Made by a program: the position numbers and the translations under genes. The notes beneath the pieces were generated by a model, which did no database searches, was not told the DNA's origin, and saw nothing but the letters and a program-made list of their open reading frames with translations. Shown here one piece after another: positions 3,027 to 24,378 of a DNA stretch of 64,000 nt. The DNA lies in the NCBI GenBank assembly GCA_963776275.1, contig CAVZMI010000018.1, positions 1 through 64,000 of the forward strand, given 5' to 3'. Each line of letters begins with the position of its first letter. The first letter of the stretch is position 1. This stretch comes from Ignavibacteriota bacterium (lineage in GTDB: Bacteria > Bacteroidota > Ignavibacteria > UBA10030 > CAVZMI01).

Positions 3027-3230
3027 ATATATAAATTATTACTGCAATACTAAAAAATATCTGGAGGAGCCGGATTGTTATAGTCGATGACATCAAAAAG
3101 CAATATGTTTATAATAAAAAGATAAATCATTGAAATCCCTTATTTGTATGGAGATAAATCCGTATGAAAAAGTGGAACTTTGTGCGTTCCCGGTTGGTTA
3201 TCCGATGAGATAGGAAAGAAGGGTCGTGTG

Positions 3231-5621
3231 ATGTCAATGAAAACATCAGCTCCTGACAATATCAATGTACCGGAAGTTCTTCCGGTAATTCCCTTACGCA
3301 ACACTGTATTCTATCCCGGGCAGGTCATACCGCTATCGATCGGTCGTGAAAGTACGATCAAAGTCGTCGATGAAGCGGTTCACTCGAATTCGACAATCCT
3401 TCTTCTCGCCCAGAAGGATTCCTCAGTCGATGTCCCGATTCCGGCTGATGTCTATAACTTCGGTACTACGGCCAAAATCCTAAAAGTTTATGCCTTGCCT
3501 GACGGGACAAAGAGTGTCCTTGTGCAGGGAATGTACCGCGCTAAAGTGTTAAATTTCGTACAGACGGAACCGTACTTGCGTGCTCTTTCACAGCGTGTTG
3601 GCGATGAAGAAACAGCGGATGTTGAAGAAGAAGCCCTTGTCGCAAACATACGCTCTCTGTTTCGAAAAGTTGTCGACCTCTCGAATGATCTCACTTCGGA
3701 GCACCTCACAATCGTTATGAACATGCAGGAACAGGACCACTCGCTGATGTGATAATGTCGCTCGTAAATGCAAATATACAGGAAAAACAGGACGTCCTTG
3801 AAAGTCTCAAGGTGAAGGAACGTCTTGTAAAAACAAATCTTGCTTTGAATAAACTTGTCCAGCGGCTGGAACTTGGAAACAAGATCCAATCTGATGTCCA
3901 GGATGAAATAAGCAAGACTCAACGCGAATATTATCTCCGTGAGCAAATGAAAGCAATTCGGAAAGAACTCGGGGAAGATGAGGGAAATGTTGAAATCAAG
4001 GAACTCAGGAATAAAATAGATGAAACAAAATTCCCCCAGGAAGTGAAAACCATTGCCGATAAAGAACTCGATCGGCTTTCACGGATGAGTCCCGCCTCTG
4101 CCGAGTATACCGTATCGCGAACGTATCTCGACTGGCTCCTGGAACTTCCCTGGAGTGTAAGCACGGAAGATCGGCTTGACATCAAAAAGGCCGGGGAAGT
4201 GCTTAATGACGAGCATTACGGTCTGGATAAAGTGAAAAAGCGTATTCTGGAATATCTTGCCGTCCGGAAATTGAAAAAAGATATGAAGGGTCCGATTTTG
4301 TGTTTCGTGGGTCCTTCCGGGTGTAGGTAAAACCTCGCTGGGTCGATCGATTGCGAATGCCCTTGGGCGAAAATTTATTAGAATCTCGCTCGGCGGTGTG
4401 CATGATGAAGCCGAAATCAGGGGTCATCGACGGACTTATATCGGCGCTTTACCGGGACGGATAATTCAGGGATTGAAAAAAGCTGGATCGAATAATCCTG
4501 TCTTTATGCTCGATGAAGTGGATAAGATAGGAATGGATTTTCGGGGTGATCCATCCTCGGCCTTGCTTGAAGTCCTCGATCCGGAACAAAACTTTTCATT
4601 CAGCGATCATTATATTGAAGCGGCGTTTGATTTGTCGAATGTAATGTTTATCACTACCGGAAATATGCTGGAACCGATTCCTCCGGCACTGCGGGATCGA
4701 ATGGAGATCATTGAGATTCCCAGTTACACCGAAGAGGAAAAGCTGATGATCGCAAAACGCTTCCTCGTGCCTAAACAAATCAAAGAACACGGCTTGAAGG
4801 ATAAGAGTCTGGTATTCGAAGACGTTGCGCTGAAAAAAATCATCAACGCATATACCAAGGAAGCCGGTGTACGTTCGCTCGAGCGCAGGATTGCAGATGT
4901 CTGCCGCGGTGCTGCCCGGGACATCGTTGAAGGGAAAAAAGAGGAGCGGGTTATTGGGAGCGATGATGTTGTTGCGTTTCTTGGGAAAGATAAGTTTTAT
5001 TCGGAAGTGTCCGAGAGGATTTCCAAACCGGGGATTGCTACTGGGCTTGCATGGACTCCCGTCGGTGGTGATATTCTTTTCATCGAAGCGACGAAAATGA
5101 AGGGGAAGGGGGCTCTGATCATCACCGGTCAACTCGGTGATATTATGAAGGAATCTATTCAGGCGGCTGTGAGTTATATCGCTTCGAATAGCGGGGATCT
5201 GGGGATCGAGCAGAACTTCAAGGAAAAATACGATATACATGTTCATGTGCCAGCGGGAGCAATTCCAAAGGACGGTCCATCAGCGGGGGTGACGATGTTG
5301 ACGGCATTGGTGTCATTGCTTACCGATCGCCATGTTCGGAATGATCTTGCAATGACCGGAGAGATCACCTTACGCGGTGCTGTGTTACCTATCGGCGGCG
5401 TGAAAGAGAAAGTCCTGGCTGCCGCACGGGCGGGAATTACCACGATTGTTTTGCCTGATCGAAACCGTGCCGATGTCGAGGAAATTCCGGAGAACGTCCG
5501 GCAATCAATCAATTTTTCCTTTGTCAAGGAAATGGGAGAAGTGTTGAAGATCGCTTTGCAGCCGAAAAAAGCATCTCGCTTGAAATTGTCTAAGAAAAAC
5601 AAAACAAGGAAAAAACAATAA
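3231..5621 (+). CDS. lon: ATP-dependent protease La (Lon), split into three ORFs by two frameshifts (~3733, ~4315)
   Basis: LON N-domain LPVIPLRN; Walker A restored as VGPPGVGKT; LLDEVDK-type Walker B (MLDEVDK); PKDGPSAG catalytic Ser motif. Confidence 0.95.
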
Positions 5622-11916: not shown

Positions 11917-14073
11917 CTACCGAAGCAATATCATTTTTTTTGTGGCTGTGAATCCTTCCATCGATAATCTATAATAATACACTCCGCTCGGCAGATTCTC
12001 ACCTGAAAACTCAGCCTCGTATTCTCCTATTGAAAGCTGCGTGTTAATAAGCGTAGCGACTTCATGTCCAAGGACATCATAAACACGTAGAGTCACATAT
12101 TTGGATCCCGGTATTTGAAATTTGATCTTTGTGGTGGGATTAAACGGATTCGGATAATTTTGTTCAAGTGAGATAGTCTTCGGCATTCGGTCGATATGTT
12201 GGATTAATTCGCTGGGAATCACCACGATAGTGTCGGAGAAGAAAGATTTTGTGTCCCAGAGGGCTATCAGCCGGAATCTGTCGATTGTATTATTAATGAC
12301 AGTTGCACTGTACGGGATCACTGTCCTGATAAATGCGGGTGACTCTGGGATAGCGACCGACCCGCTTTTATCTGATGTGACAATCACTTCGATCGGTGAT
12401 GAGAGAACATCAAGGTTATGATAACGGTCGAATCGCCGTACATAATATGGAAATTCAACTCCGAAAAAAACCGTATCGCATTGTCCGTCTGAACCGTTCC
12501 ATGTTGCGCCATGGACGCTTCCGCCCGTTTCATCATATGGAAAAATATCGAGAGTGACGATTGGACCGGGAATAACGTTGAAGGAAGGAGTTGTTCCGAC
12601 TACGCCGTTCGTATCGTAGAATGAAAAGCTTATAGGCATATTCTCGGCAAGCATCATGAATGTCCTGATTTGTGCGATGCCGTCCTGGAACACATTATCA
12701 CCCACGGTATTTTCTTTTATGTACACTCCATATTTATTTAGGTATCCTACTTTCCATTGCTCTTGGGTTGCGACCGAGTTATTCACCCAGAAGGGAAGAA
12801 CAGGATTGGCGTAATTTGCTAGGCGATTTCCTTTTGAATCTTTTGCTATGACTGTCCACTCCACACTATCGGTGGCCGCGACTCCATTTGGAGGGGGATT
12901 CCCGGTCACATCGAAGGATGCAACCAACGGTGTAGGATTATGCCAGTGGGCGATGTTGCTGCATGGTTTTCCTCCAGCCAGGGAAAAATTTCCAATGACA
13001 TACAGATCTAGGTTATTAGCCACAAATCCCCGGACGATCCCATTCACACCGCTGCCGAGAGGCTGCCACTGTATAACATCCCACTTTGCGATATTCGATA
13101 TTGGCTGTTGATCGACTTTTAGTAATTCGCCTCCGATATATACTTCTTTTCCATTCATTGCGATGGCATAAATGCTGGTTCCATCTATACTGTTGACGGC
13201 AGATTGCCAGGTCGTACCGTCCCATTTCGCAAGATATTTTGAAGGCTGACCATTCATCACCGTAAACTGGCCGCCTGCGTAGAGATTATTTCCACTTGCA
13301 GCCAGTGAATATACATAATCATTCGGTCCTGTTCCTAATGACTTCCATACACTTGCATCCCATTGTGCAATGTTATTTGCTGCAATTCCACCTGCTAGGG
13401 TAAACGAGCCGCTCACACATATCGATGTTTTATATACTGCAACTGAAAATACTGTCCCATTAACACCAGTTCCAAGTGCTTCCCAATGTGTGCCAGTCCA
13501 CTTTGCGATATTTGATGCAGGTTGCCCTCCTGCACTTCCGAATCTTCCCCCCACATAAACATCGGTTCCATTGATAGCGATCGCGTAAACTTCACCATCC
13601 ACTCCGGTTCCTAAAGGGTACCATGTTGTACCATCCCACCGGGCGATTGCGTTTACTTCCTTACCATCTGCATATCTGAAGGTTCCGCCCACATAGACAT
13701 ACGGACCATTCACAGCAATCGCACGCACCCATCCATCTATTCCGTTTCCCATTCGATTCCAGTGTGTGCCGTCCCACCGTGCAATGTTATTCAGGTTTGT
13801 CTGATCTCCCGCCTCATTAAAAGAGCCGCCAACATACAGATTGTTCCCGTCGGTTGCAATCGCATAGGGAGAGCCATATAATCCATTGGACACTCCGAAT
13901 GTATCGCGCCAGCTGCTATCTTCCGGAACGGATGCCAGATGTTGTTGGGAAAGAAGATTCTGGCTAGTAAAAAGTTGATTTTTATATAAAGGGAGTCTTG
14001 TGTCGGGTTGTCCGAATAGACTTAATGGAGCCAGAAAGAAAAAGCCTATGAGAAAAAAAAGAAATCTCTTCGT
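11917..14073 (-). CDS. Secreted 7-repeat beta-propeller protein with a T9SS type-A C-terminal sorting domain
   Basis: Seven ~46-aa repeats (AIA..G..VYVGG.F..AGG....IA.WDG..W); C-terminal LEQNYPNPFNPTT...KKMILLR; frame stays open 60 codons upstream of 13893, reaching the signal peptide (ACG)KRFLFFLIGFFFLAPLSLFG. Confidence 0.85.
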   Translation of the reverse strand, partial: TKRFLFFLIGFFFLAPLSLFGQPDTRLPLYKNQLFTSQNLLSQQHLASVPEDSSWRDTFGVSNGLYGSPYAIATDGNNLYVGGSFNEAGDQTNLNNIARWDGTHWNRMGNGIDGWVRAIAVNGPYVYVGGTFRYADGKEVNAIARWDGTTWYPLGTGVDGEVYAIAINGTDVYVGGRFGSAGGQPASNIAKWTGTHWEALGTGVNGTVFSVAVYKTSICVSGSFTLAGGIAANNIAQWDASVWKSLGTGPNDYVYSLAASGNNLYAGGQFTVMNGQPSKYLAKWDGTTWQSAVNSIDGTSIYAIAMNGKEVYIGGELLKVDQQPISNIAKWDVIQWQPLGSGVNGIVRGFVANNLDLYVIGNFSLAGGKPCSNIAHWHNPTPLVASFDVTGNPPPNGVAATDSVEWTVIAKDSKGNRLANYANPVLPFWVNNSVATQEQWKVGYLNKYGVYIKENTVGDNVFQDGIAQIRTFMMLAENMPISFSFYDTNGVVGTTPSFNVIPGPIVTLDIFPYDETGGSVHGATWNGSDGQCDTVFFGVEFPYYVRRFDRYHNLDVLSSPIEVIVTSDKSGSVAIPESPAFIRTVIPYSATVINNTIDRFRLIALWDTKSFFSDTIVVIPSELIQHIDRMPKTISLEQNYPNPFNPTTKIKFQIPGSKYVTLRVYDVLGHEVATLINTQLSIGEYEAEFSGENLPSGVYYYRLSMEGFTATKKMILLR

Positions 14074-14450
14074 GTGGAATGAATCGGTTGTTGAGGATAT
14101 TGAATACTGTCGTTTGTCATGAAATATTGTTGGATTATTGAAATCATCAATACTTAAAAGTACGGGGGGTAAGTTTTTGATGTGTGATATGACTCACGAT
14201 ATTTAATCCCCGGTCGTAAGTCTTTAATGAAATCTTAATCTAATATCATAAATATAGATTATCTTTCGTTGAAAATCAAGATTAGAGATATATCATCAAT
14301 TACTGCCGACAAATATCCCCTTTTTATCTGGGATAGTGTCATCGTCCGGGCTGAGAATAGCCGTTGGAAAATTACTACAAGGGTATCCCCTTAGAAGGAC
14401 ACAAATTGAAAAAAGAAGCGCACTACTTTCGTCAAATTGCAGATTTAATA

Positions 14451-15426
14451 TTACAGCCGACTTGATCTACCTTTCCGATCTTCACCAATCTGAATTTCAC
14501 CGCCGACAAGATTTAACTTTCCATTTACATGGACAGCAGGTATATCGATCCGATAAGTTCCATCGGGAAGTCGCTCAGCTACCGGGAGCCGATGACCTGT
14601 TGAATCCTGGATAAAGTGGCAACCCTGGCAATTCTGGATGAGAGAACCTCTGACATGGTCTTTAATGGGAAGAGGATTATCGGTTGCCGGATCGCCATGG
14701 CAGCTACCACACGGTGCCTGATTGCTTGCAGTCCAGATTACGACAGTATTCTGATTACCGCCAACAAATGATCCATGGCAATAAGTATCTGCGCATGAAC
14801 TGTTTGCCCGATCATATTTCGGATTTGGGAAATGACCTTCCCCCGATTCTCCGGATCTTGTGTATGCAAGCGAGTCACTAAATATGACTGCGGCACCCGG
14901 TGCTGTCAGATCAATATGATTCGGGTCCGAGAACGACTCTGGCGGCCGATGACATGTCGAACAGTGATAACCGCCGGATATCGTTGCCGCTTTAAGATGC
15001 TTTTGATGTGCGCCGACTCCTCGTGCACTTGTTATTGTGTCTCCCGCAAGATCTCTCGGTGGCGCAATACTGGCCGCGCTTCCATGGCATGTGGTACACG
15101 CTTCAGGACCTCTCTGGTGGCATGTGAAGCATGATATACTTGTTGCTCCGCCTTTGTAATCGATACCATGACAGCTCTGGCATTCCTTCATGCTGTACCC
15201 CTGCGCGGCAATGGCGTTTCCATGGAAACCGGAATCCGAGGGATCAGTCCAGCCGGTATTGTGAAACTCTGACTCAACCGGGTTCATCCTCTGTGAACTT
15301 TCTTCCAATTTACTGCAGCCGCTCAGTACGAGGAGTCGCACATACAATTCTACCGATACAAATACACCCAAACCCAAGGTTCCCGGTCAAATGCTCCAGC
15401 CGGCCAGCTCGTCTGTCTTTGTTCAT
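14451..15426 (-). CDS. Multiheme c-type cytochrome lipoprotein (6 CxxCH + 1 CxxxxCH); probable frameshift near 15335 in the signal peptide
   Basis: CQSCH, CFTCH, CTTCH, CSTCH, CADTYCH, CGSCH, CQGCH; LVLSGC lipobox; start uncertain (ATG 15426 with an indel, or TTG 15377). Confidence 0.85.
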
Positions 15427-15518
15427 TGAAGTTGGACGGGCTGAGCGTGCAGTTGCATACCTTTGGGATATATGTACAAACCACATAGTCTTCTCGTTAT
15501 CAGACGATGAATATTCAA

Positions 15519-16820
15519 TCAACCGTGACAATAGCCACAGAAGAATCGACCTTTGACGCCGCCCGGATGTGCATTTGGGTCGGTATGGCATATATAGCAG
15601 ATTGCTCCCGGATCATTATGCCAGTTACCATGTTCGGAATTGAGATATCCACCCTGATGCGTTTTGGGATCAGTTCCTCTGACGCCGTCGGGATCGTTAT
15701 GGCAGGTGATGCATATCGGATCCGACCCCTGCGTGTCATGACAGGCCTGGCAGGTTTCGATGTCGCGTCGTGCAAATTCCGCATGTCGTCCTCCGCCGGA
15801 TCCGGCCATTCTTCCAGTTGTAAAACCGACGCCGGAGTGCCAGACAGGTGCCGGTTGATTGCGGAGGGTAATGCCGCCGTCCTGTGCATGACATTGCACA
15901 CAGAATGAGCGTACTTCATGGCAACTCGAGCAGTCTGATGCCTTTCCTTTTGCCTCGATCCCGTGCGTGAAGCGGTAATTCAGCGAATGTACAAGTTCCA
16001 GTGTCATTGGTTTGCCCCGATCTGTTCCACTCCGGCTTGTCGGTGCACCAAAAGATGTATAGACATCACTTTTTTTTGCATCGGTTTTTCCGATTACTGC
16101 GTCGGTATGACAATCCTGACAGAACGTATCGGTGCGATGACACATCTGACAATTTTCATCTCTACCACCGAGACGTGCAAATTGCTTATGTTCCTTTTTA
16201 AAATCACTGACGCGATGGCTCGGTGGTAATAAGCCGACTGTCGTAATATGGCATGCTTCGCAAATATTCGTTGCAAGCCGGATCTTAAACTCTAAAGAAT
16301 CGTTGTTCGCCTTGATAATTTCCTGGGATTCTAGCGATTCAAGTCCGCCGTTGTGGCATTTATAACATATCGCCATTGTCGGGAGCGATGATGAACCGGA
16401 ATAGGCTACAGAGTCGAGTCTTTTGTGGCAGTTTTCACAGACTAATTCCAGTGTGTCGAGGTGGTACTCGTGGCTGAACATGATCGAGCGTTCCGGAGTG
16501 TTAAAAGGGACGTAAGGCTCGGCTCCAAGATGACAGTACTTACATTCTGTTGTCTTCTCATCGTGGCATTTATAACAGTCTGCCATTTTGGGTAAAATGT
16601 TATCGCGGGCGCCCTTGCTTTTTTGTGCTGTGGAATGACAATCGATACACGATGCACCCACATCTTTCAGATGGTATTGATGGGAAAATTTGATCGTCTG
16701 CGTTTGGTCTTCACCCCGATACCTCGCGGTAACTATAGGTAAACGGAGTGGGCCAATCTCAATAAGCAGTAAGAGAAGCCCGACACAACCGGTGAGAAAT
16801 ACAAATGACTTCACACTCAT
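15519..16820 (-). CDS. 14-heme c-type cytochrome (cytochrome c3/c7-like N-terminal repeats)
   Basis: 14 CxxCH motifs counted; FSH..H distal-His patterns; N-terminal hydrophobic leader. Confidence 0.92.
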   Translation of the reverse strand: MSVKSFVFLTGCVGLLLLLIEIGPLRLPIVTARYRGEDQTQTIKFSHQYHLKDVGASCIDCHSTAQKSKGARDNILPKMADCYKCHDEKTTECKYCHLGAEPYVPFNTPERSIMFSHEYHLDTLELVCENCHKRLDSVAYSGSSSLPTMAICYKCHNGGLESLESQEIIKANNDSLEFKIRLATNICEACHITTVGLLPPSHRVSDFKKEHKQFARLGGRDENCQMCHRTDTFCQDCHTDAVIGKTDAKKSDVYTSFGAPTSRSGTDRGKPMTLELVHSLNYRFTHGIEAKGKASDCSSCHEVRSFCVQCHAQDGGITLRNQPAPVWHSGVGFTTGRMAGSGGGRHAEFARRDIETCQACHDTQGSDPICITCHNDPDGVRGTDPKTHQGGYLNSEHGNWHNDPGAICYICHTDPNAHPGGVKGRFFCGYCHG

Positions 16821-16832
16821 AGTTATCCTATC

Positions 16833-18104
16833 CTATAGTTGATCGAAGAACCAGTAGTTGAGACGGAAAAATAATCTTCCATCGCTCTTATAAATTTTAT
16901 TATTGAAATATTGACCCTGGAGATCGAACGACAATGATGGGAAGGGACGGAATGAAATTCCGAGAAGCGCGGAAAGGCTCCTATCGGTTCCCGATTCATC
17001 AGAGAGCTTATAGCAAGCGTACTCAAGGCCGCAGGATCCGGTAATTTTTGATTCCACCAATGGAATTGCCGTATTCAACTGAATCCCGTCAAGTGCCCCC
17101 GCATAACCGAGATTTTTGAAATATCCTCCCTCGAAATACGACCAACGACCGCCGAGACTGAGGCGCTGCGTTTTTGCATCAGTGAATGAGACTTGTCCAA
17201 ATCGTGCGTGTACCTGCGTCGTTGGTGTAAAACTGTACACCATGCCTCCCTCGATCTCGTCGGAATTGCTGTAATTGAATACCGAGAAAATCGAATTGGC
17301 AGCTAAATGAGGGACACGGTGGATGAAATTTGCGATAATGCCAAGGTACTCTGTGACGCTCACCCGTCCGGCAAACTCAATTCGTCCGTTGCGATCCAGA
17401 TTGAGGTCATAATCATATCGTCCATAAACTGAGAAAAGCGTTTCGTATCTATAATTGATATCGCCACTGAGATATTGCTCGGCATTTGTCGTGAGATCGA
17501 CGGTGAACGGAATCGTATTCTGAATCGCACTCCGGGATGTGATATAGATTTCCGGTTTTGTCTGCCGGTTCATGTAGCTCAATCCAAAACGAAGTGCAGG
17601 CATGGGGTTGACGATGACCTGACCTCCCATCATCCTGTTTTTTGAAAAATCATTAATAATTTTCAATTCCTGATTGATGGGAAGAAGACCACCATAATAT
17701 GCCGTAACAGCGAACTTACCATCCCACAGTGCAGCTTTTGCGAGAGCTCCGTCGATTACGCCATTGCCGGCGCCGGCAAAGACAGGAAGTCGGCCCAGGT
17801 TGATCTCTCCGATACCGGCGATATTCTTCCACCGGATGTAAAGGTTAAGAAACCGGATGAGAGGATCTTCCGTGAGTCTATTGCTGAAATCCGTCGATGC
17901 CTGAAAGTAAGTATGGAGGGAAAGATTAGAATACCGAAAATCGAATTGTGCTCCCTGAAAACCTCGCCAGTGTGCGTACGATATTCCCGCACTGTCTTTC
18001 CGCTGCCACGAATACACGGATGTCGCCAAACGTCCGTTTATCGATTGTGCAACGAGCACTGCAGGAACAAGAATGGCGATGAAACAAAGCAATAATCGTT
18101 TCAT
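16833..18104 (-). CDS. Predicted outer-membrane beta-barrel protein (putative cytochrome-associated porin)
   Basis: Signal peptide ending VLVA-Q; alternating aromatic/Gly-rich strands throughout; C-terminal RLFFRLNYWF; flanked by cytochrome genes. Confidence 0.75.
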   Translation of the reverse strand: MKRLLLCFIAILVPAVLVAQSINGRLATSVYSWQRKDSAGISYAHWRGFQGAQFDFRYSNLSLHTYFQASTDFSNRLTEDPLIRFLNLYIRWKNIAGIGEINLGRLPVFAGAGNGVIDGALAKAALWDGKFAVTAYYGGLLPINQELKIINDFSKNRMMGGQVIVNPMPALRFGLSYMNRQTKPEIYITSRSAIQNTIPFTVDLTTNAEQYLSGDINYRYETLFSVYGRYDYDLNLDRNGRIEFAGRVSVTEYLGIIANFIHRVPHLAANSIFSVFNYSNSDEIEGGMVYSFTPTTQVHARFGQVSFTDAKTQRLSLGGRWSYFEGGYFKNLGYAGALDGIQLNTAIPLVESKITGSCGLEYACYKLSDESGTDRSLSALLGISFRPFPSLSFDLQGQYFNNKIYKSDGRLFFRLNYWFFDQL

Positions 18105-18381
18105 GAATTTCTGCTTGAGTAAGGGTGAACGAAAATGCTCTCCTGTTGAATTGCAGTATTAAAAATTTCACTCCGGTCTGTCTTTGTGGAAGACCGTGAT
18201 GATTTTACTAGTGCCCCTACAACTAATTAAATACCGCGAAGCGGTACTGTTTCACCGTATACAAACAAAGGGGCACAGTACCATCAAAGCTTATAGAAAA
18301 TAATTGCTGTAAGGGAAAACAACCATAGTTGAAGAAATATTGAGCAGGCACTGTTTAATCATTTAATTGGATGGGTACCAG

Positions 18382-18894
18382 TTATCCTTTCTTCGGCAGC
18401 GGATGCTTAATTTTTTCCCACGACGCTTTGTAATCGAACTTCTTGTAGCTGGGACTTTCCGGATTATGACACTTCTCGCACAACTTGGGATCATTTGACG
18501 CGATGATCAGACCGGCGGCAAGAGCTTTCCCGCGATCTTTCATCACAGCGATTGATTTATATTCTGAACCCGGGCCGTGGCAGGCTTCGCATGTCACACC
18601 ATCTTTTCCATTGCCAACAATGTGACATTTCAGACAGGCTGGGCTATCCTTTGCGGCGGTCTTAAGTCCTTTTTCTTTCGCAATCTTATCGGCTTCAGGG
18701 GTTTCGAGTGTTTTGTACGCTTTTGCATGACTGCTCTTTTCCCAGATTTCAGCCTGTGATCCCTTCGCTGCACCTCTATGACATGCTGCACATATCTTCT
18801 CGCCAACATATTTTGCAGTTCCCTGCGAATGTGTAAGAGATGCGAAAAAGATCATCGCACAGATGACTGTCACCACTGCCATGAATTTCTTCAT
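18382..18894 (-). CDS. Tetraheme cytochrome c554-family periplasmic protein
   Basis: Signal peptide; YVG..CAACH, W..S.HA, CLKCH, GV.CEACHGPG and CEKCH. Confidence 0.9.
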   Translation of the reverse strand: MKKFMAVVTVICAMIFFASLTHSQGTAKYVGEKICAACHRGAAKGSQAEIWEKSSHAKAYKTLETPEADKIAKEKGLKTAAKDSPACLKCHIVGNGKDGVTCEACHGPGSEYKSIAVMKDRGKALAAGLIIASNDPKLCEKCHNPESPSYKKFDYKASWEKIKHPLPKKG

Positions 18895-19057
18895 CGTGTT
18901 AAGGTTGCTCCCTTGTGTATAATCATGGTATCCAGGGGTTGAAATTGTCTTTACTCATGTCGTAATATTTTAGAGGAAACATCGTATAGAAAGGTCCTCC
19001 CTGCAATAATAATTCCCCTCTGATGTTTTCTGAAGAGTTCAACTGCATTCTCTATAT

Positions 19058-19086
19058 ATTGTAGCGACCTTTTGCCACATTGTCAA
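19058..19086 (-). promoter_or_regulatory. Sigma70 promoter for the cytochrome-porin cluster
   Basis: TTGACA-17bp-TACAAT on the minus strand, immediately after the OFOR stop codon. Confidence 0.7.
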
Positions 19087-19087
19087 G

Positions 19088-20452
19088 TTATCTCGGTGAT
19101 TTTAACAGTGAATCTGCAGCTTCCCGGAGCTGTGAAAAATCTTTCTCATATGCCGCTGATGCCTTGCCGAATCTTTCTTTGATTACTGCCTGAAGAGCCT
19201 CGGTCGGAACAAGATCAACGAGGAGCGAGGCCAGAAACACTCCGGCCATTGCGGCCCGAGATGGAGAGATTTTCTTCCTGAAATTATATCTCACGATCCT
19301 GGCGTTTGTTTCATGTAACGATAATTCTGCGTCTGCAAGTATTAAGGTCTTTTCAGATGCACGGCTGAAAGTTCCGTTTGATAGTAATTCTTCTAGTCCA
19401 TCAGTCGAGGTCACGACTATGACGTCCGGCTCGTCAATAGCCGTGTAATATATTTCGGTCGGACTGATGCATACTTCCGATAGCGAAAAACCCGATCCCT
19501 GCGTAACTGGATTATCGTTCTTTTGCGTACACTCCAGTCCCGACATAACTGCAGCGCGTGCGAGTAGATAGGCGGTCGACTGAACCCGCTCGCCCGCTGT
19601 CCCTGCAATGACAATACCCACCTGCTTTTGCAATGAGCCTGAAAAACGTTGGTCGATATATTCTAATGAAGTATTATCATGTTCCACCCGGGGTTCATAT
19701 TTCTCCTTGTACAAAACTCCGAATTCTTTTCGCACGGAAGAACGGCGGAGTATCCCCAGGGATAATTGGTGTCGGGCAAGAATTTCTTCGAGCGATTTTC
19801 CCGTTATCTCGTTGGGTCTTACTGCATATTCCGTACAAAGCTCGACGATTTCAACGAGCGCAAACCCCGGATGTGCGATTGCCTGTGCGATGACATGCGG
19901 GAGATTCTTGTCTGTTGCAAGAGTGCGTGCAACGAATCCTGCTCCGCATCCGTCGAGGATATTGCATATGTTGATCGGAGGGATCATGTTGCCGCGCGGT
20001 GTTGTCGGCGTGATGAATTCAAGCGGAGAGAAATTCGAATTCTGTCCGCCTGTCATCCCAAAAAGAAAGTTATTCGCGAGGATGACGGTAATATCCACAT
20101 TCATGAGAGCCGCGCTCACGAGATGAAGCAACCCGATCATTGCGCCGCCATCACCGATGATAACGATGGTTTTTAGTTCCGAAGTGCTCATAATAGCATC
20201 TGCGATCTCGACTCCTGTCGCAAACGCCGTCGAGCGTCCGTGCGTCGTATGCATCGTGTGAAGCTCGGGGAAGAGATTGTCGACCAGGCCGATACAACCA
20301 ATATCGCTGACGAGAAGAACCTTTGAGGGATCGATCTGGAGTTCGATTAGTGCATCATTCATGCGTTTGACAACGTGACAATGACCGCATCCCTTGCAGA
20401 ATGGAAATATGGCATCTTCAACGAGATAGTTCCGGTATTTCTGCTCAGGCAT
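19088..20452 (-). CDS. 2-oxoacid:ferredoxin oxidoreductase beta subunit fused to a gamma-like domain (set 2)
   Basis: FCKGCGH, DIGC, GDGG..NN..FGMTGGQ TPP motif; C-terminal IAGTAGERVQ gamma domain. Confidence 0.88.
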   Translation of the reverse strand: MPEQKYRNYLVEDAIFPFCKGCGHCHVVKRMNDALIELQIDPSKVLLVSDIGCIGLVDNLFPELHTMHTTHGRSTAFATGVEIADAIMSTSELKTIVIIGDGGAMIGLLHLVSAALMNVDITVILANNFLFGMTGGQNSNFSPLEFITPTTPRGNMIPPINICNILDGCGAGFVARTLATDKNLPHVIAQAIAHPGFALVEIVELCTEYAVRPNEITGKSLEEILARHQLSLGILRRSSVRKEFGVLYKEKYEPRVEHDNTSLEYIDQRFSGSLQKQVGIVIAGTAGERVQSTAYLLARAAVMSGLECTQKNDNPVTQGSGFSLSEVCISPTEIYYTAIDEPDVIVVTSTDGLEELLSNGTFSRASEKTLILADAELSLHETNARIVRYNFRKKISPSRAAMAGVFLASLLVDLVPTEALQAVIKERFGKASAAYEKDFSQLREAADSLLKSPR

Positions 20453-20454
20453 TA

Positions 20455-21651
20455 TTACGCACCTCCGTCCCCGATAGGTGAATCCTGAGAGATTGCTGTA
20501 AGAATATCATCGGGTGTGATCATTCGTCCGATGGTATTAACTCCGATCACAGTCCGATCCGCGAATAGGTGATTGATGACTCCGCGATATAACCCGGTAA
20601 GATTTTCTTCGGCGACGATCACTCTTTTCACACCATCCAAAGCGTGTGCAATTTTCTTTTCAGGTAGAGGAAAAAGTGACAGAACGTTGAGCAAGGATAT
20701 TTTCTGGCCCTGAAGCCGTGCCCGGCTGACAGCCTCGCGTGCTGTTCGGGCAGTAATCCCGTAGCTTATGACGAGCGTTTCGGCATTCTCCTGCGCGTCG
20801 AATTTCACTACGGACATATCGAATGTGCGATTGACGATTTTTTCCTGTAGATGCCGGAGGACTTCGATTGTTTCGGGTGAATTTTTTTGGAGAATGCCAT
20901 TCTTATCATGCGCTGAGCCTGTCATCGTTACTTTATACTCACTGCCGACGGTGAAAAATTTCGGAACTTCCTCCAGCTTTGAAAAACCGTATGTCGGAAC
21001 GTGTCGCTCCATGGCCGAGTAATTGGATGGAAGAGCCTGGAGACCTGTTCGGTTGACAACTTCAATATCCCGGAGTGCCAGATAGTCGACACTTTCCGAG
21101 GTCATTCCGACTTCCTTGTCTGAAAGTATAATCACCGGTGTCCGCAGGACTTCCGACCATGAGAATGCAAGCATCGTCAATTCATAGCATTCTGCAGCGG
21201 TACTTGGGGCAAAGATAGGGATGGTGTATCCGCCGGACGTACAGAATTCTGCGAGCAGGACGTCACCCTGGCCACCCTGAGTTGCTCCACCGGTACTCGG
21301 GCCCAAACGTTGGACAAGGACAAGAACGAGAGGTATCTCGGTAATTATTGCATACTGGAGAGTTTCGATCATCAGAGCAAATCCTGGTTCGGATGTCGCA
21401 GTCATTGCTTTGCATCCACGGGCTGAGGCACCGACACAATAGGCAAGAGCTGAGATCTCATCGGGCGCGCTGAGTGCAATGTCGCCACGTTTCGGGAGAC
21501 CTTCGATCATTGATTTAAAAATTCCTGATGCAGGGGTAATCGGATATCCGCTGAAGAAATTGCATCCTGACCTTATTGCCCCTTCAGCAATCATCTGATT
21601 TCCGGAGCGTATTTTCCGATGTTGATGACCACTCTGAGGAGTCATGAACAC
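20455..21651 (-). CDS. 2-oxoacid:ferredoxin oxidoreductase alpha subunit (set 2)
   Basis: GNQMIAEGA, GYPITP, TATS(E)PG and QRLGPSTG motifs. Confidence 0.9.
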   Translation of the reverse strand: MFMTPQSGHQHRKIRSGNQMIAEGAIRSGCNFFSGYPITPASGIFKSMIEGLPKRGDIALSAPDEISALAYCVGASARGCKAMTATSEPGFALMIETLQYAIITEIPLVLVLVQRLGPSTGGATQGGQGDVLLAEFCTSGGYTIPIFAPSTAAECYELTMLAFSWSEVLRTPVIILSDKEVGMTSESVDYLALRDIEVVNRTGLQALPSNYSAMERHVPTYGFSKLEEVPKFFTVGSEYKVTMTGSAHDKNGILQKNSPETIEVLRHLQEKIVNRTFDMSVVKFDAQENAETLVISYGITARTAREAVSRARLQGQKISLLNVLSLFPLPEKKIAHALDGVKRVIVAEENLTGLYRGVINHLFADRTVIGVNTIGRMITPDDILTAISQDSPIGDGGA

Positions 21652-21667
21652 TTGCGTCGATGTTATA

Positions 21668-21916
21668 TTATGTAAGACTTGATCCGATCTGGTCGGTGAT
21701 ATCGCGTTCGACCTGCACCTCTTCTATTTTCTGTTGAAGAGAAGCAATCAATGCTTCCCGTCCGACGATCAAGCGCTGGAAGTAGATCCGTATTTCCGGG
21801 AAATCGCATTCGGTAATGACACTCCTGTAATACTCGAGAGTTGCCGATTCACGATGCAATGATTCTTCCAGTGCACTGCAAAACTTCGCGCATTGATGGT
21901 CGCATTGAGGTTCCAT
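21668..21916 (-). CDS. Small hypothetical protein with a Cys-rich N-terminus and a ferritin-like helix pair
   Basis: 82 aa; AGGAGG SD; CDHQCAKFC then EESLHRE....YY....ECD.PEIR..F. Confidence 0.6.
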   Translation of the reverse strand: MEPQCDHQCAKFCSALEESLHRESATLEYYRSVITECDFPEIRIYFQRLIVGREALIASLQQKIEEVQVERDITDQIGSSLT

Positions 21917-21939
21917 TGATCCCTCCTGTCGATAAATCT

Positions 21940-22479
21940 TCATTTCCCTACTAGCTCGGCACCGCGCCTGAGTGCTTTTTCGTTCAACGGAATAAGGTGA
22001 TGATGACGTTCAGGGAGAACTTTTTTCAGGGCGACGCGGATAGCCTCAAGTCCCACAACCTGCCGGCAGCGCAGGAGCGCTCCGAGCACAATCATATTCA
22101 TCACTTTCGTGTTATTCAATTTTATTGCTTCTTCACTTGCCGGGATCGGTACGATAGTGATGTCGGTCCGTACCGGTTTGTTAATGATGTTCGTGCTGTC
22201 ATAGAGCAGCAGACCGCCGGGTTTCACCGATTTTTCGAATTTATCGAGCGACGGCTGGTTTAATGCTACAACGGCGTCGAAGCGTGAAATAATGGGTGAA
22301 CTGATCGGCTCGTCGGCTATGATTGTAATACAATTCGCAGTGCCGCCTCGCATTTCCGGTCCATACGACGGCATCCAGCAGACTTCGCGGTTTTCAGTGA
22401 TTCCGGCGTATGCGAGAACTTGTCCCATCGAAAGAATACCCTGACCGCCAAAGCCCGCAAAGATAAGCTCATGTGTCAT
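21940..22479 (-). CDS. 2-oxoacid:ferredoxin oxidoreductase gamma subunit (set 1)
   Basis: AGFGGQG, PSYGPEMRGG and NMIVLGA. Confidence 0.93.
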   Translation of the reverse strand: MTHELIFAGFGGQGILSMGQVLAYAGITENREVCWMPSYGPEMRGGTANCITIIADEPISSPIISRFDAVVALNQPSLDKFEKSVKPGGLLLYDSTNIINKPVRTDITIVPIPASEEAIKLNNTKVMNMIVLGALLRCRQVVGLEAIRVALKKVLPERHHHLIPLNEKALRRGAELVGK

Positions 22480-23258
22480 GCGCGTTTCACCTCGCCTTCC
22501 GGTACTTTTAGGTCACCCAGAGGATAGATAGGAAGCATGTTTTTTTCAAGCCAATCGTTTGCTTCGAGTGGCGTCATTTTCCATCCTGAGGGACAGTTCG
22601 ATACGATTTCGATCAGACATGTCCCGCGTTTTTCTTTTTGATAACCGAACGCACGAACAAGAGATTTTTTTAGTTGTCTGACATGGTTCGGCGTGAAGAC
22701 TGCCTGCCGTGTGACATAGGCCGATCCCGGTAACATAGCTATGAGGTCGGCAATCTTCAGTGGAAATCCCTGCAGCTTGATATCGCGGCCGAAGGGAGAT
22801 GTGCTGGTCTTCATCCCCTCAATTGTTGTCGGGGCCATCTGGCCGCCTGTCATGCCGTAAATTCCATTGTTGATAAAAACGACGAGGATGTTCTCCCCGC
22901 GGTTTGCTGTGTGGATGGTTTCGGCTGTACCAATCGCTGCGAGGTCACCGTCGCCCTGATAGGTGAATACATATTTATCGGGGAGAACCCGTTTGATGCC
23001 GGTTGCTACTGCACATGCTCGTCCGTGTGCGGCTTCCTGCATGTCGATGTCTAAATAAAAATACGCGAATACCGCACAACCCACCGGAGCAATGCCGATG
23101 ACATTCTCCTGAATACCTAATTCATCTATCACTTCCATCACGACTCTATGAGCAACCCCGTGTCCGCAACCGGGGCAATAACGCGTTTGTGTATCGACCA
23201 GTGTCCCGGGTTTCAGGTATACACATTCGAGATTTTCAAGATCGATTATTGGTTCCAT
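22476..23258 (-). CDS. 2-oxoacid:ferredoxin oxidoreductase beta (TPP-binding) subunit (set 1, VOR/KOR-like)
   Basis: YCPGCGHG, APVGC and QGDGD..NNGIYGMTGGQ. Confidence 0.93.
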   Translation of the reverse strand: MEPIIDLENLECVYLKPGTLVDTQTRYCPGCGHGVAHRVVMEVIDELGIQENVIGIAPVGCAVFAYFYLDIDMQEAAHGRACAVATGIKRVLPDKYVFTYQGDGDLAAIGTAETIHTANRGENILVVFINNGIYGMTGGQMAPTTIEGMKTSTSPFGRDIKLQGFPLKIADLIAMLPGSAYVTRQAVFTPNHVRQLKKSLVRAFGYQKEKRGTCLIEIVSNCPSGWKMTPLEANDWLEKNMLPIYPLGDLKVPEGEVKRA

Positions 23259-23266
23259 TATAATAT

Positions 23267-24358
23267 TTACTCCTGTACGACAACACGAAATTCATGTTTC
23301 TGTGAGAGTGCAAGCATCTCATCGAGAACTTCTTCAGGACTCGGAATCATTCCACCCATGCGGCCGTGAAAATAGACGGGGACCTGCCCGTCGACGGCAA
23401 GCCGTACATCTTCCACCATCTGGCCGGAATTCATTTCGACCACTAGCATTGCTTTAACTTTTTTTGCGAGCAGGTTTATGACGGTGGTTGGGAAAGGATA
23501 CAGCGTAATCGGTCGAATCAGACCGGCGTTGATTCCTTGGTCTTTTGCAAGGTCAATTGCCTTATGGGCGATCCGTGCTGAAAGACCGAACGCAACCAGA
23601 ATAAGGTCTGCATCTTCAGTATTGATGAGCTCGAATCGGACCTCCTCTTCACAAATCTTTTTATATTTTTTCTGGAGATGGATGTTGAAATCTTCCATCT
23701 GTTCCGGTTCGAGATGTATCGATGTGATTATATTTCGTTCACGCCCTTTTGTCTTTCCTGTTGTAGCCCACGGCTTTGGAATGCGTTGAGATTTATCGTA
23801 CGGCCGGAATTCAACTTTTTCCATCATTTGGCCGAGTGCACCATCGGTAAGAATCATAACAGGAATCCGCCATTTGTCCGCAAGGTCGAATCCATCGTAA
23901 ACAAAATCGGCCATTTCCTGCACGGTCGCAGGTGCAAGCACGATGAGATGATAATCGCCATGTCCGCCTCCTTTGACAGCCTGAAAGTAGTCGCCCTGTG
24001 ACGGCTGGATGGTTCCGAGTCCCGGCCCCCCACGGTTCACATTAACAATAAGAAATGGAAGTTCGGCGCAGGCACTGTAGGAAAGTCCTTCCTGCATCAA
24101 ACTGATTCCCGGGCTAGAGGATGAGGTCATCACCCGAGCACCGGCTCCGGATGCGCCATAGATCATGTTGATTGCCGCAAGTTCGCTCTCTGCTTGAAGG
24201 ACAATCCCTCCTTTTGGGGCAAACTCCGATGAAAGATATTCTAAAATTTCCGATTGAGGCGTAATGGGATAACCAAAATAGGCGTCAAGTCCTGCCCGTA
24301 TGGCAGCTTCGGCAAGAGCTTCGTTGCCTTTCATGAGACTAATGTCGTGCACGGTCAT
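23267..24358 (-). CDS. vorB: 2-oxoacid:ferredoxin oxidoreductase alpha subunit (VorB-like, set 1)
   Basis: LMKGNEA, GYPITPQSE, SSSPGISL and RGGPGLGTIQPSQGDY; AAAGGAG SD. Confidence 0.88.
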   Translation of the reverse strand: MTVHDISLMKGNEALAEAAIRAGLDAYFGYPITPQSEILEYLSSEFAPKGGIVLQAESELAAINMIYGASGAGARVMTSSSSPGISLMQEGLSYSACAELPFLIVNVNRGGPGLGTIQPSQGDYFQAVKGGGHGDYHLIVLAPATVQEMADFVYDGFDLADKWRIPVMILTDGALGQMMEKVEFRPYDKSQRIPKPWATTGKTKGRERNIITSIHLEPEQMEDFNIHLQKKYKKICEEEVRFELINTEDADLILVAFGLSARIAHKAIDLAKDQGINAGLIRPITLYPFPTTVINLLAKKVKAMLVVEMNSGQMVEDVRLAVDGQVPVYFHGRMGGMIPSPEEVLDEMLALSQKHEFRVVVQE

Positions 24359-24378
24359 ATCTCCTTTGAACATGTGTG

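Follow-up and report, generated by a model that had tools for sequence, protein, structure and literature searches.

Introduction

As defined by Shi et al. (2014), a porin-cytochrome (Pcc) conduit comprises a porin-like barrel of ~18-22 strands, an adjacent periplasmic multiheme cytochrome with 5-14 CxxCH motifs, and an adjacent outer-membrane lipoprotein multiheme cytochrome, the last of which is absent in some clusters; similarity was judged by BLAST at E < 0.01 to OmbB, OmaB and OmcB of Geobacter sulfurreducens (PMC4245776). Among their examples is a pcc cluster of Ignavibacterium album, IALB_1837-IALB_1840, described from the genome only. IALB_1839 is its porin, IALB_1838 the largest periplasmic cytochrome of any Pcc (400 amino acids (aa), 14 motifs), IALB_1837 an outer-membrane cytochrome that bears the atypical motif CX3-15CH, and IALB_1840 a pcc-associated periplasmic cytochrome; IALB_1839 and IALB_1838 fall outside all five phylogenetic groups and are called "distantly related" to the rest (PMC4245776). 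Here we analyze four adjacent genes, A, B, C and D, in a 64,000-nucleotide (nt) stretch of DNA from an Ignavibacteriota bacterium (assembly GCA_963776275.1, contig CAVZMI010000018.1), and compare them with the I. album cluster and with other multiheme conduits. We refer to the whole stretch as the window, and all coordinates are window positions unless a locus is named.

Later genome surveys extended the picture. Arbour et al. (2020) described OmbB-like PCCs in two Ignavibacteria genomes and cited earlier reports for Melioribacter roseus and I. album (PMC7399161), Fortney et al. (2018) described Geobacter/OmbB-like PCCs in Ignavibacteria (PMC6137239), and He et al. (2019) reported OmbB-OmaB-OmcB homologues in metagenome-assembled genomes (MAGs) of Ignavibacteriaceae (PMC6344600). 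The cluster is not discussed in the passages found of the M. roseus genome and omics papers, and a literature search for MROS_1564, the M. roseus homologue of gene B, and for Stygiobacter electus returned no papers.

Results and Discussion

Open reading frame (ORF) and motif counts bear out the arrangement proposed in an earlier note on this DNA: four co-oriented genes, lying head to tail on the minus strand, with the heme motifs listed in Table 1 (25 heme sites in all; 4 + 14 + 7) and a spacing of only 12 nt between B and C. The A-B and C-D gaps are 277 and 141 nt, respectively. We conclude, with a probability of roughly 70%, that genes A-D encode an Ignavibacteria-type Pcc conduit carrying electrons across the outer membrane, because a plug-less barrel and a 14-heme protein form a conserved pair that is flanked by a tetraheme protein and a variable lipoprotein cytochrome. 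In such a conduit electrons would flow outward: a quinol oxidase of the inner membrane, with its genes at another site in the genome, would supply the periplasmic tetraheme protein A, which would hand them on to the 14-heme protein C, whose hemes are probably all bis-His. C would sit within barrel B, whose 22 strands enclose no plug, and span the membrane, and the lipoprotein cytochrome D, on the outer face, would accept the electrons and reduce insoluble or large acceptors, which may be Fe(III)/Mn(IV) minerals, humics, electrodes or partner cells.

The locus agrees with the I. album description feature by feature. B and C combine a barrel within the range of ~18-22 strands with an adjacent cytochrome within the range of 5-14 CxxCH motifs, and the features peculiar to the Ignavibacteria type are present as well: a 14-heme cytochrome of ~400 aa beside the porin, an atypical motif (CX4CH) in the outer cytochrome D, and an extra periplasmic cytochrome, gene A, on the other side. 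Judged by these described features, the window cluster is another member of the I. album type, which is known bioinformatically, and not a new kind. The terms "candidate novel" and "lineage-specific" in the earlier note, taken to mean undescribed, do not survive the account of the I. album cluster by Shi et al. (2014) and the later MAG papers. That note had also held that orthology to a characterised system would overturn its reading; relatives have indeed been described bioinformatically, but they have not been characterised biochemically. The correspondence with Ignavibacterium itself is not complete. In four Ignavibacterium-labelled loci (L030, L040, L056 and L069) among those compared below, 14-heme ORFs of 397-411 aa follow the barrel, as in the window, but the window barrel is only 37-38% identical to theirs, window C carries an insertion of ~22 aa, and L040 has quinol-oxidase-type neighbours, which the window lacks. 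The window alone is an ordinary instance of a widespread cluster, and the family is of greater interest than this single copy.

To describe the family, we searched for homologues of the barrel in 90% clusters at E ≤ 0.001. This search gave 589 relatives, nearly all of them unnamed or "hypothetical"; the named ones belong to Ignavibacteriales, Melioribacteraceae or "Bacteroidota" MAGs. MROS_1564 of M. roseus is homologous to B with E = 9.6e-84 and 40% identity. A profile search of 1.84 billion representatives returned 659 clusters at E ≤ 0.001, 171 of them at E ≤ 1e-30. When the L040 barrel served as a further query, and in an Atlas search, the matches listed were exclusively unnamed or "hypothetical" Ignavibacteriota/Bacteroidota clusters, and no I. 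album locus tag was among them; nor did the I. album type-strain proteins appear by name among the matches listed for the window barrel or for D. At least 430 species-representative genomes (from 598 pattern matches) encode a barrel relative, which makes the cluster the most conserved candidate route by which Ignavibacteriota, whose frequent habitats are sediments, peat and aquifers as well as bioreactors and anode biofilms, may pass electrons to minerals, humics or electrodes.

We analyzed gene order in 80 loci kept from these genomes, including three from isolates that carry the cluster, two of Melioribacter sp. (L043, L065) and one of Stygiobacter electus 09-Me (L075); the closest relative among them is L001, which is 96% identical to the window. 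In 74 of the 80 loci there is an ORF of ~400 aa carrying 13 or 14 CxxCH motifs, and in 73 the barrel gene directly precedes it, with gaps mostly of 1-10 nt (commonest: 1, 6, 9 and 10 nt). A 3-4-heme ORF precedes the barrel in 58 loci, a multiheme ORF follows the 14-heme gene in 70, and all four genes are found together in 56; most of the misses are short contigs, contig ends or ORF-calling overlaps. The neighbourhood survey that the earlier note had recommended demonstrates that the B-C pairing is conserved across Ignavibacteriota. The lengths of the C orthologues fall between 392 and 435 aa, while the downstream cytochrome is the most variable gene: 32 of 70 loci have the 6+1 hemes of the window, and the remainder range between 5 and 36. 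Such variation would suit a terminal component exposed to the outside. Two MAGs of Melioribacteraceae have, in place of the 7-heme lipoprotein, very large lipoprotein cytochromes with 28 and 36 CxxCH motifs (L020:8489-11113 and L049:8491-11775).

In many other genomes the cluster is adjoined by additional genes, among them those for NrfH-like membrane cytochromes, Rieske proteins with cytochrome b, a fusion of a 16-heme protein and FdnI-like cytochrome b, CcmF/NrfE-type lyases and sigma-54 regulators. In L040, the cluster is preceded (L040:478-4983) by genes for an NrfH-like 6+1-heme membrane cytochrome, a Rieske protein with cytochrome b, and an 11-heme protein, and is followed by a CcmF/NrfE-type heme lyase; in L075, a 16-heme protein fused to an FdnI-like cytochrome b precedes the cluster (L075:2864-5308). 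By sequence, these upstream genes of L040 and L075 are candidate quinol-oxidising modules. Among the loci with full flanks, 10 of 48 have no further multiheme gene, as in the window.

The product of gene B was modeled by AlphaFold2 with 30 homologues. The model is a 22-strand barrel (predicted local distance difference test, pLDDT, 84.3; predicted template-modelling score, pTM, 0.73) with an N-terminal signal helix at residues 2-18. Its strand connections alternate, one set being 2-4 aa long and the other longer, up to 24 aa, as is usual where short turns face the periplasm and longer loops face outward. The lumen contains no plug, no long constriction loop and no filling domain, and the predicted barrel looks like an open sheath. 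On this model, B is a secreted outer-membrane beta-barrel with 22 strands, the sheath of the putative conduit. This outcome upholds the earlier note's view of B as the barrel of a porin-cytochrome system; the failure to fold as a barrel, which would have told against that view, did not occur. Its description of an aromatic C-terminus is accurate in that the end is aromatic-rich (...YWFFDQL), but the final residue is Leu. No family in Pfam or NCBIfam matches B at E ≤ 1, its profile found nothing meaningful among PDB sequences (best E 0.9), and a Foldseek search with the model retrieved only generic outer-membrane barrels (FimD/PapC ushers, AlgE, Occ and OmpF) at template-modelling scores of 0.3-0.5.

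Gene C encodes a protein with 28 His residues for its 14 CxxCH motifs. The 26 orthologues aligned share all 14 motifs and 11 further His without exception, and H401 almost without exception. From this count and from the invariance of the extra His, the hemes of C are probably all bis-His electron-transfer hemes, and nothing in the His count hints at a catalytic site. A catalytic reading of the nitrite/hydroxylamine type was considered and rejected, since neither CxxCK nor another catalytic-type motif is present and the His count fits bis-His ligation. The first ~170 residues of C resemble the c7-type domains of a Geobacter dodecaheme protein (3ov0, E 7e-25) and of ActA of alternative complex III, and in a comparison with solved structures the C profile matched MtrC and did not match MtrA. 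The insertion of ~22 aa follows heme 5 (residues ~157-178, window 16140-16210); it is present in full in L001 and in part in L016, and is missing from the other 23 aligned orthologues. At the N-terminus (16785-16820), the C proteins of the window and L001 have an extra hydrophobic segment with a lipobox-like Leu-Thr-Gly-Cys 11 residues from the start, while other C orthologues have ordinary Sec-type signal peptides.

We also carried out the complex prediction for the barrel and the 14-heme protein that the earlier note had suggested, using residues 21-423 of B and 34-433 of C in three runs with three controls. The score was 0.57 (runs: 0.58, 0.48 and 0.57), against 0.00 for the best control, with partner pLDDT of at least 61 and contact agreement between runs of at least 59%; the tool returned a verdict of weak support and gave no interface output. 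In the calibration of this tool, 116 of 157 solved complexes and 2 of 215 mismatched pairs attained its mark, and scores at or below 0.60 comprised 18 of the 157 solved complexes and both of the mismatches. We take the prediction as no more than weak evidence for a complex. In the proposed conduit, C is probably the heme wire, lying within the barrel and beneath it.

The product of gene D matches TIGR01904, the CxxxxCH/CxxCH domain (E 1e-11, 44.5 bits, cut-off 27), and it has no match among PDB sequences (best E 0.13). Its lipobox is Leu-Ser-Gly-Cys. In the D-type proteins, a hydrophobic stretch is followed by Cys-[S/G/A] in 71 of 71 cases, with Ser at position +2 in 68; at least one Asp or Glu lies within positions +2 to +7 in all 71, and at least two in 58. 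Acidic residues after the lipoprotein Cys resemble the surface-export signal of Bacteroidota lipoproteins. On these sequence features, D is the probable terminal reductase on the outer face, a 7-heme cytochrome of lipoprotein type.

Gene A has a Sec-type N-terminus and matches the Pfam family Cytochrome_C554 (PF13435; E 6.7e-13, 49.8 bits, above the gathering cut-off of 20.8) as well as solved cytochrome c554 of Nitrosomonas europaea (PDB 1bvb; phmmer E 3.3e-7, residues 27-114). Both proteins are tetraheme and share the c554 domain, but the solved chain has 211 aa, compared with 170 aa for A. Against the Nitrosomonas equivalog NF043010, A scores 43.4 bits, below the cut-off of 400, and hydroxylamine-oxidation genes were not found among the Pfam-scanned neighbouring ORFs. 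Gene A probably encodes a secreted periplasmic electron shuttle with a c554-type fold.

In layout, the cluster resembles OmbB-OmaB-OmcB of G. sulfurreducens (and OmbC-OmaC-OmcC), in which a barrel with 18-22 predicted strands is encoded next to two multiheme cytochromes, one of them periplasmic and the other an outer lipoprotein (PMC4245776). OmbB-based BLAST and hidden Markov model searches by others recovered Ignavibacteria clusters, and the CxxxxCH/CxxCH domain of D was first defined in Geobacter. In contrast, the heme numbers are 8 and 12 in Geobacter and 14 and 7 in the window, and no curated model in the two family databases searched with B (E ≤ 1) joins it to the Geobacter barrels. The Shewanella MtrCAB system (and MtoAB/PioAB) is alike in principle, being a barrel-sheathed multiheme wire with a surface lipoprotein cytochrome, and some D homologues carry the MtrC/MtrF domain II/IV family PF22113. 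The components themselves differ: B lies outside the MtrB_PioB family (PF11854), there being no Pfam match at E ≤ 1, MtrA has 10 hemes compared with 14 in C, and C scores only 13.1 bits against the DmsE/MtrA decaheme model TIGR03508 (cut-off 192.2). MtrB, moreover, has 28 predicted strands (PMC4245776), compared with 22 in the 423-aa B. The cluster is, by these sequence criteria, not a member of the Mtr family, and the earlier note was right that its parts do not fit MtrA and MtrB.

We consider it possible, though doubtful, that the Ignavibacteria barrel/14-heme pair is an independent structural class of trans-outer-membrane conduit, rather than a diverged OmbB/OmaB pair, and that it has a conserved core role in the respiration of hundreds of Ignavibacteriota species, among them some that are not known to reduce metals. 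If so, it would be a third kind of barrel-plus-wire conduit beside those of Mtr and Geobacter Pcc. It would combine a minimal, plug-less 22-strand sheath with a longer, 14-heme, all-bis-His wire bridging much of the periplasm, and its surface cytochrome would be delivered by an acidic lipoprotein signal in the style of Bacteroidota (Cys-Ser followed by Asp/Glu).

Several points have to be set against an outward Pcc conduit. I. album has the cluster, yet reportedly fails to grow with Fe(III) or Mn(IV) oxides (PMC4245776). Our literature search found no laboratory test of this type, that is, no biochemical or genetic study of the barrel/14-heme family. Genes for a quinol oxidase and for heme maturation were not found in the window, as the earlier note had already observed: 53 neighbouring ORFs (35 + 18) scanned against Pfam included no ccm/ccs, NrfD or cytochrome b gene, and none of the window ORFs of at least 60 aa outside the cluster has more than one CxxCH motif. 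AlphaFold2 of C alone, with 26 sequences, yielded an unusable model (pLDDT 48.6, pTM 0.32), a failure that is as expected because hemes are absent from the modelling. Finally, the window copy of D is frameshifted; should this frameshift be genuine, D may fail to arrive at the outer face.

An arrangement of the same parts could also work mainly inward, in the manner proposed for MtoAB/PioAB, with electrons entering from Fe(II), reduced humics, a cathode or another cell acting as partner. Multiheme wires with bis-His ligation are reversible in principle, as in the Mtr/Mto systems, and the direction of flow is not deducible from sequence, both of which count in favour of uptake. The reported failure of I. 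album to grow on Fe(III)/Mn(IV) oxides, in place of which Shi et al. suggest different substrates, can be read in the same way (PMC4245776). Nevertheless, we regard a mainly inward conduit as unlikely, since cultured relatives with the cluster are reported to be Fe(III) respirers: a Melioribacteraceae isolate of a new genus respires iron (PMC11708057), and Melioribacter performs Fe(III) reduction (PMC6137239). In addition, an outer lipoprotein cytochrome is encoded, whose absence marks oxidising, mto-like systems (PMC6137239, PMC6344600), and elsewhere the cluster is adjoined by NrfH-like and CbcL-like modules of quinol-oxidase type, although these are themselves bidirectional in principle.

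How far the outer cytochrome can be relied on in this particular genome depends on the start of D. In L001 and in P0377, both of them nearly identical to the window here, an upstream ATG and an Arg-rich n-region read in frame into the lipobox. Comparison with both reveals an extra G in the window (Table 1), which leaves the ATG and the n-region out of frame with the mature part, and the frame from this ATG ends in a stop (ORF 15310-15591). To read window D as a lipoprotein then requires translation from a TTG codon, and the resulting signal peptide is poor, with Glu and Arg interrupting the hydrophobic stretch. The earlier note's view of D as a lipoprotein has the lipobox and the N-termini of the D-type proteins in its favour, but is weakened for the window copy. 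In the more distant relatives P0380-P0385, the N-termini of D are in frame, with the usual hydrophobic stretch and Cys.

If the frameshift blocked export of D, the outer cytochrome would not work in this genome, leaving B and C (with A) as a two-part conduit, or else a decaying cluster. Two-part systems have precedents, since Anaeromyxobacter and Kuenenia have two-gene pcc clusters without an outer cytochrome, and larger periplasmic cytochromes could, according to Shi et al., cross the membrane alone (PMC4245776). We nonetheless judge the loss of D to be slightly less probable still than a mainly inward conduit. The mature part of D is open and identical to that of P0377, which gives no sign of decay. 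Furthermore, the gene for Lon protease in the window is spread over three frames (3180-3752, 3749-4330 and 4398-5621), the second break falling in the Walker A region, which suggests assembly indel errors, or pseudogenes. Because Lon is also frameshifted twice in the same window, the extra base in D is plausibly an assembly error, and an assembly indel is at least as likely as a real mutation.

A Pcc conduit also has to be distinguished from a purely periplasmic redox module, acting for example on a soluble nitrogen, sulfur or selenium compound, with the barrel as an ordinary channel sharing the operon. We find this very improbable: the resemblance of A to cytochrome c554 of the nitrifier hydroxylamine pathway, the want of a Pfam or NCBIfam family for B, and the weak B-C complex prediction speak for it, but catalytic-type motifs are missing (CxxCK is absent, and C has 28 His for its 14 hemes), A-D have no match to a reductase or oxidase family in Pfam or NCBIfam, the scanned flanks encode 2-oxoacid:ferredoxin oxidoreductase subunits and a propeller protein with a type IX secretion system (T9SS) tail, the spacing of 1-10 nt between barrel and 14-heme gene is near-invariant (73 of 80 loci), which is the pattern of a structural pair, the D-type proteins are lipoproteins, and the loops of B are short, with no constriction loop or plug.

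Features of the Region

The coordinates of the cluster and of the features found in and around it are given in Table 1.

Table 1. Genes and other features of the cluster region (window positions)
Feature	Position	Strand	Description
Gene A	18382-18894	-	170 aa, 4 CxxCH
Gene B	16833-18104	-	423 aa, no heme motif
Gene C	15519-16820	-	433 aa, 14 CxxCH
Gene D	14451-15377	-	308 aa from TTG start, 6 CxxCH + 1 CX4CH
Disrupted D signal-peptide region	15337-15426	-	One extra G at 15337; conserved ATG (15426-15424) out of frame with mature part
171-nt insertion	18211-18381	-	Directly 3' of gene A stop; absent in L001 alignment
Sigma-70-like promoter match	19058-19086	-	TTGACA-17-TACAAT; 164 nt upstream of gene A start; 11/12 consensus matches
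Weak terminator-like hairpin	14378-14393	-	58 nt 3' of D stop; 6 pairs, 3 of them G-C

On the upstream side of the cluster (19088-24373, same strand) lie two consecutive sets of genes for 2-oxoacid:ferredoxin oxidoreductase subunits; in one set, the beta subunit is fused to a gamma-like domain (454 aa). The downstream neighbour is the gene for the T9SS-tail beta-propeller protein. Outside the cluster and these direct flanks, the window contains housekeeping genes. A scan of the window for tRNA genes found none, and an Rfam scan of 14000-19300 gave no match.

The TTGACA/TACAAT promoter proposed in the earlier note is present and is the top match in a scan of 14000-19300, as a consensus match only, to a consensus that may not be that of the host phylum. 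Promoter-like sites as a class do not exceed chance expectation (14 observed, compared with 9.5 ± 2.7 in shuffled sequences). The end of the nearest 2-oxoacid:ferredoxin oxidoreductase gene overlaps the site. Terminator-like sites in the region, among them the weak hairpin beyond D, are at chance level (5 observed, compared with 4.7 in shuffled sequences).

The insertion missing from the closest relative accounts for 171 nt of the gap between A and B. A repeat-element reading was dropped because the insertion is single-copy: no second copy was found in the window or in the 80 loci. Its fold z-score of -1.98 indicates modest structure. Within the insertion, a short G+C hairpin precedes a T-rich stretch, a combination that the terminator scan did not flag.

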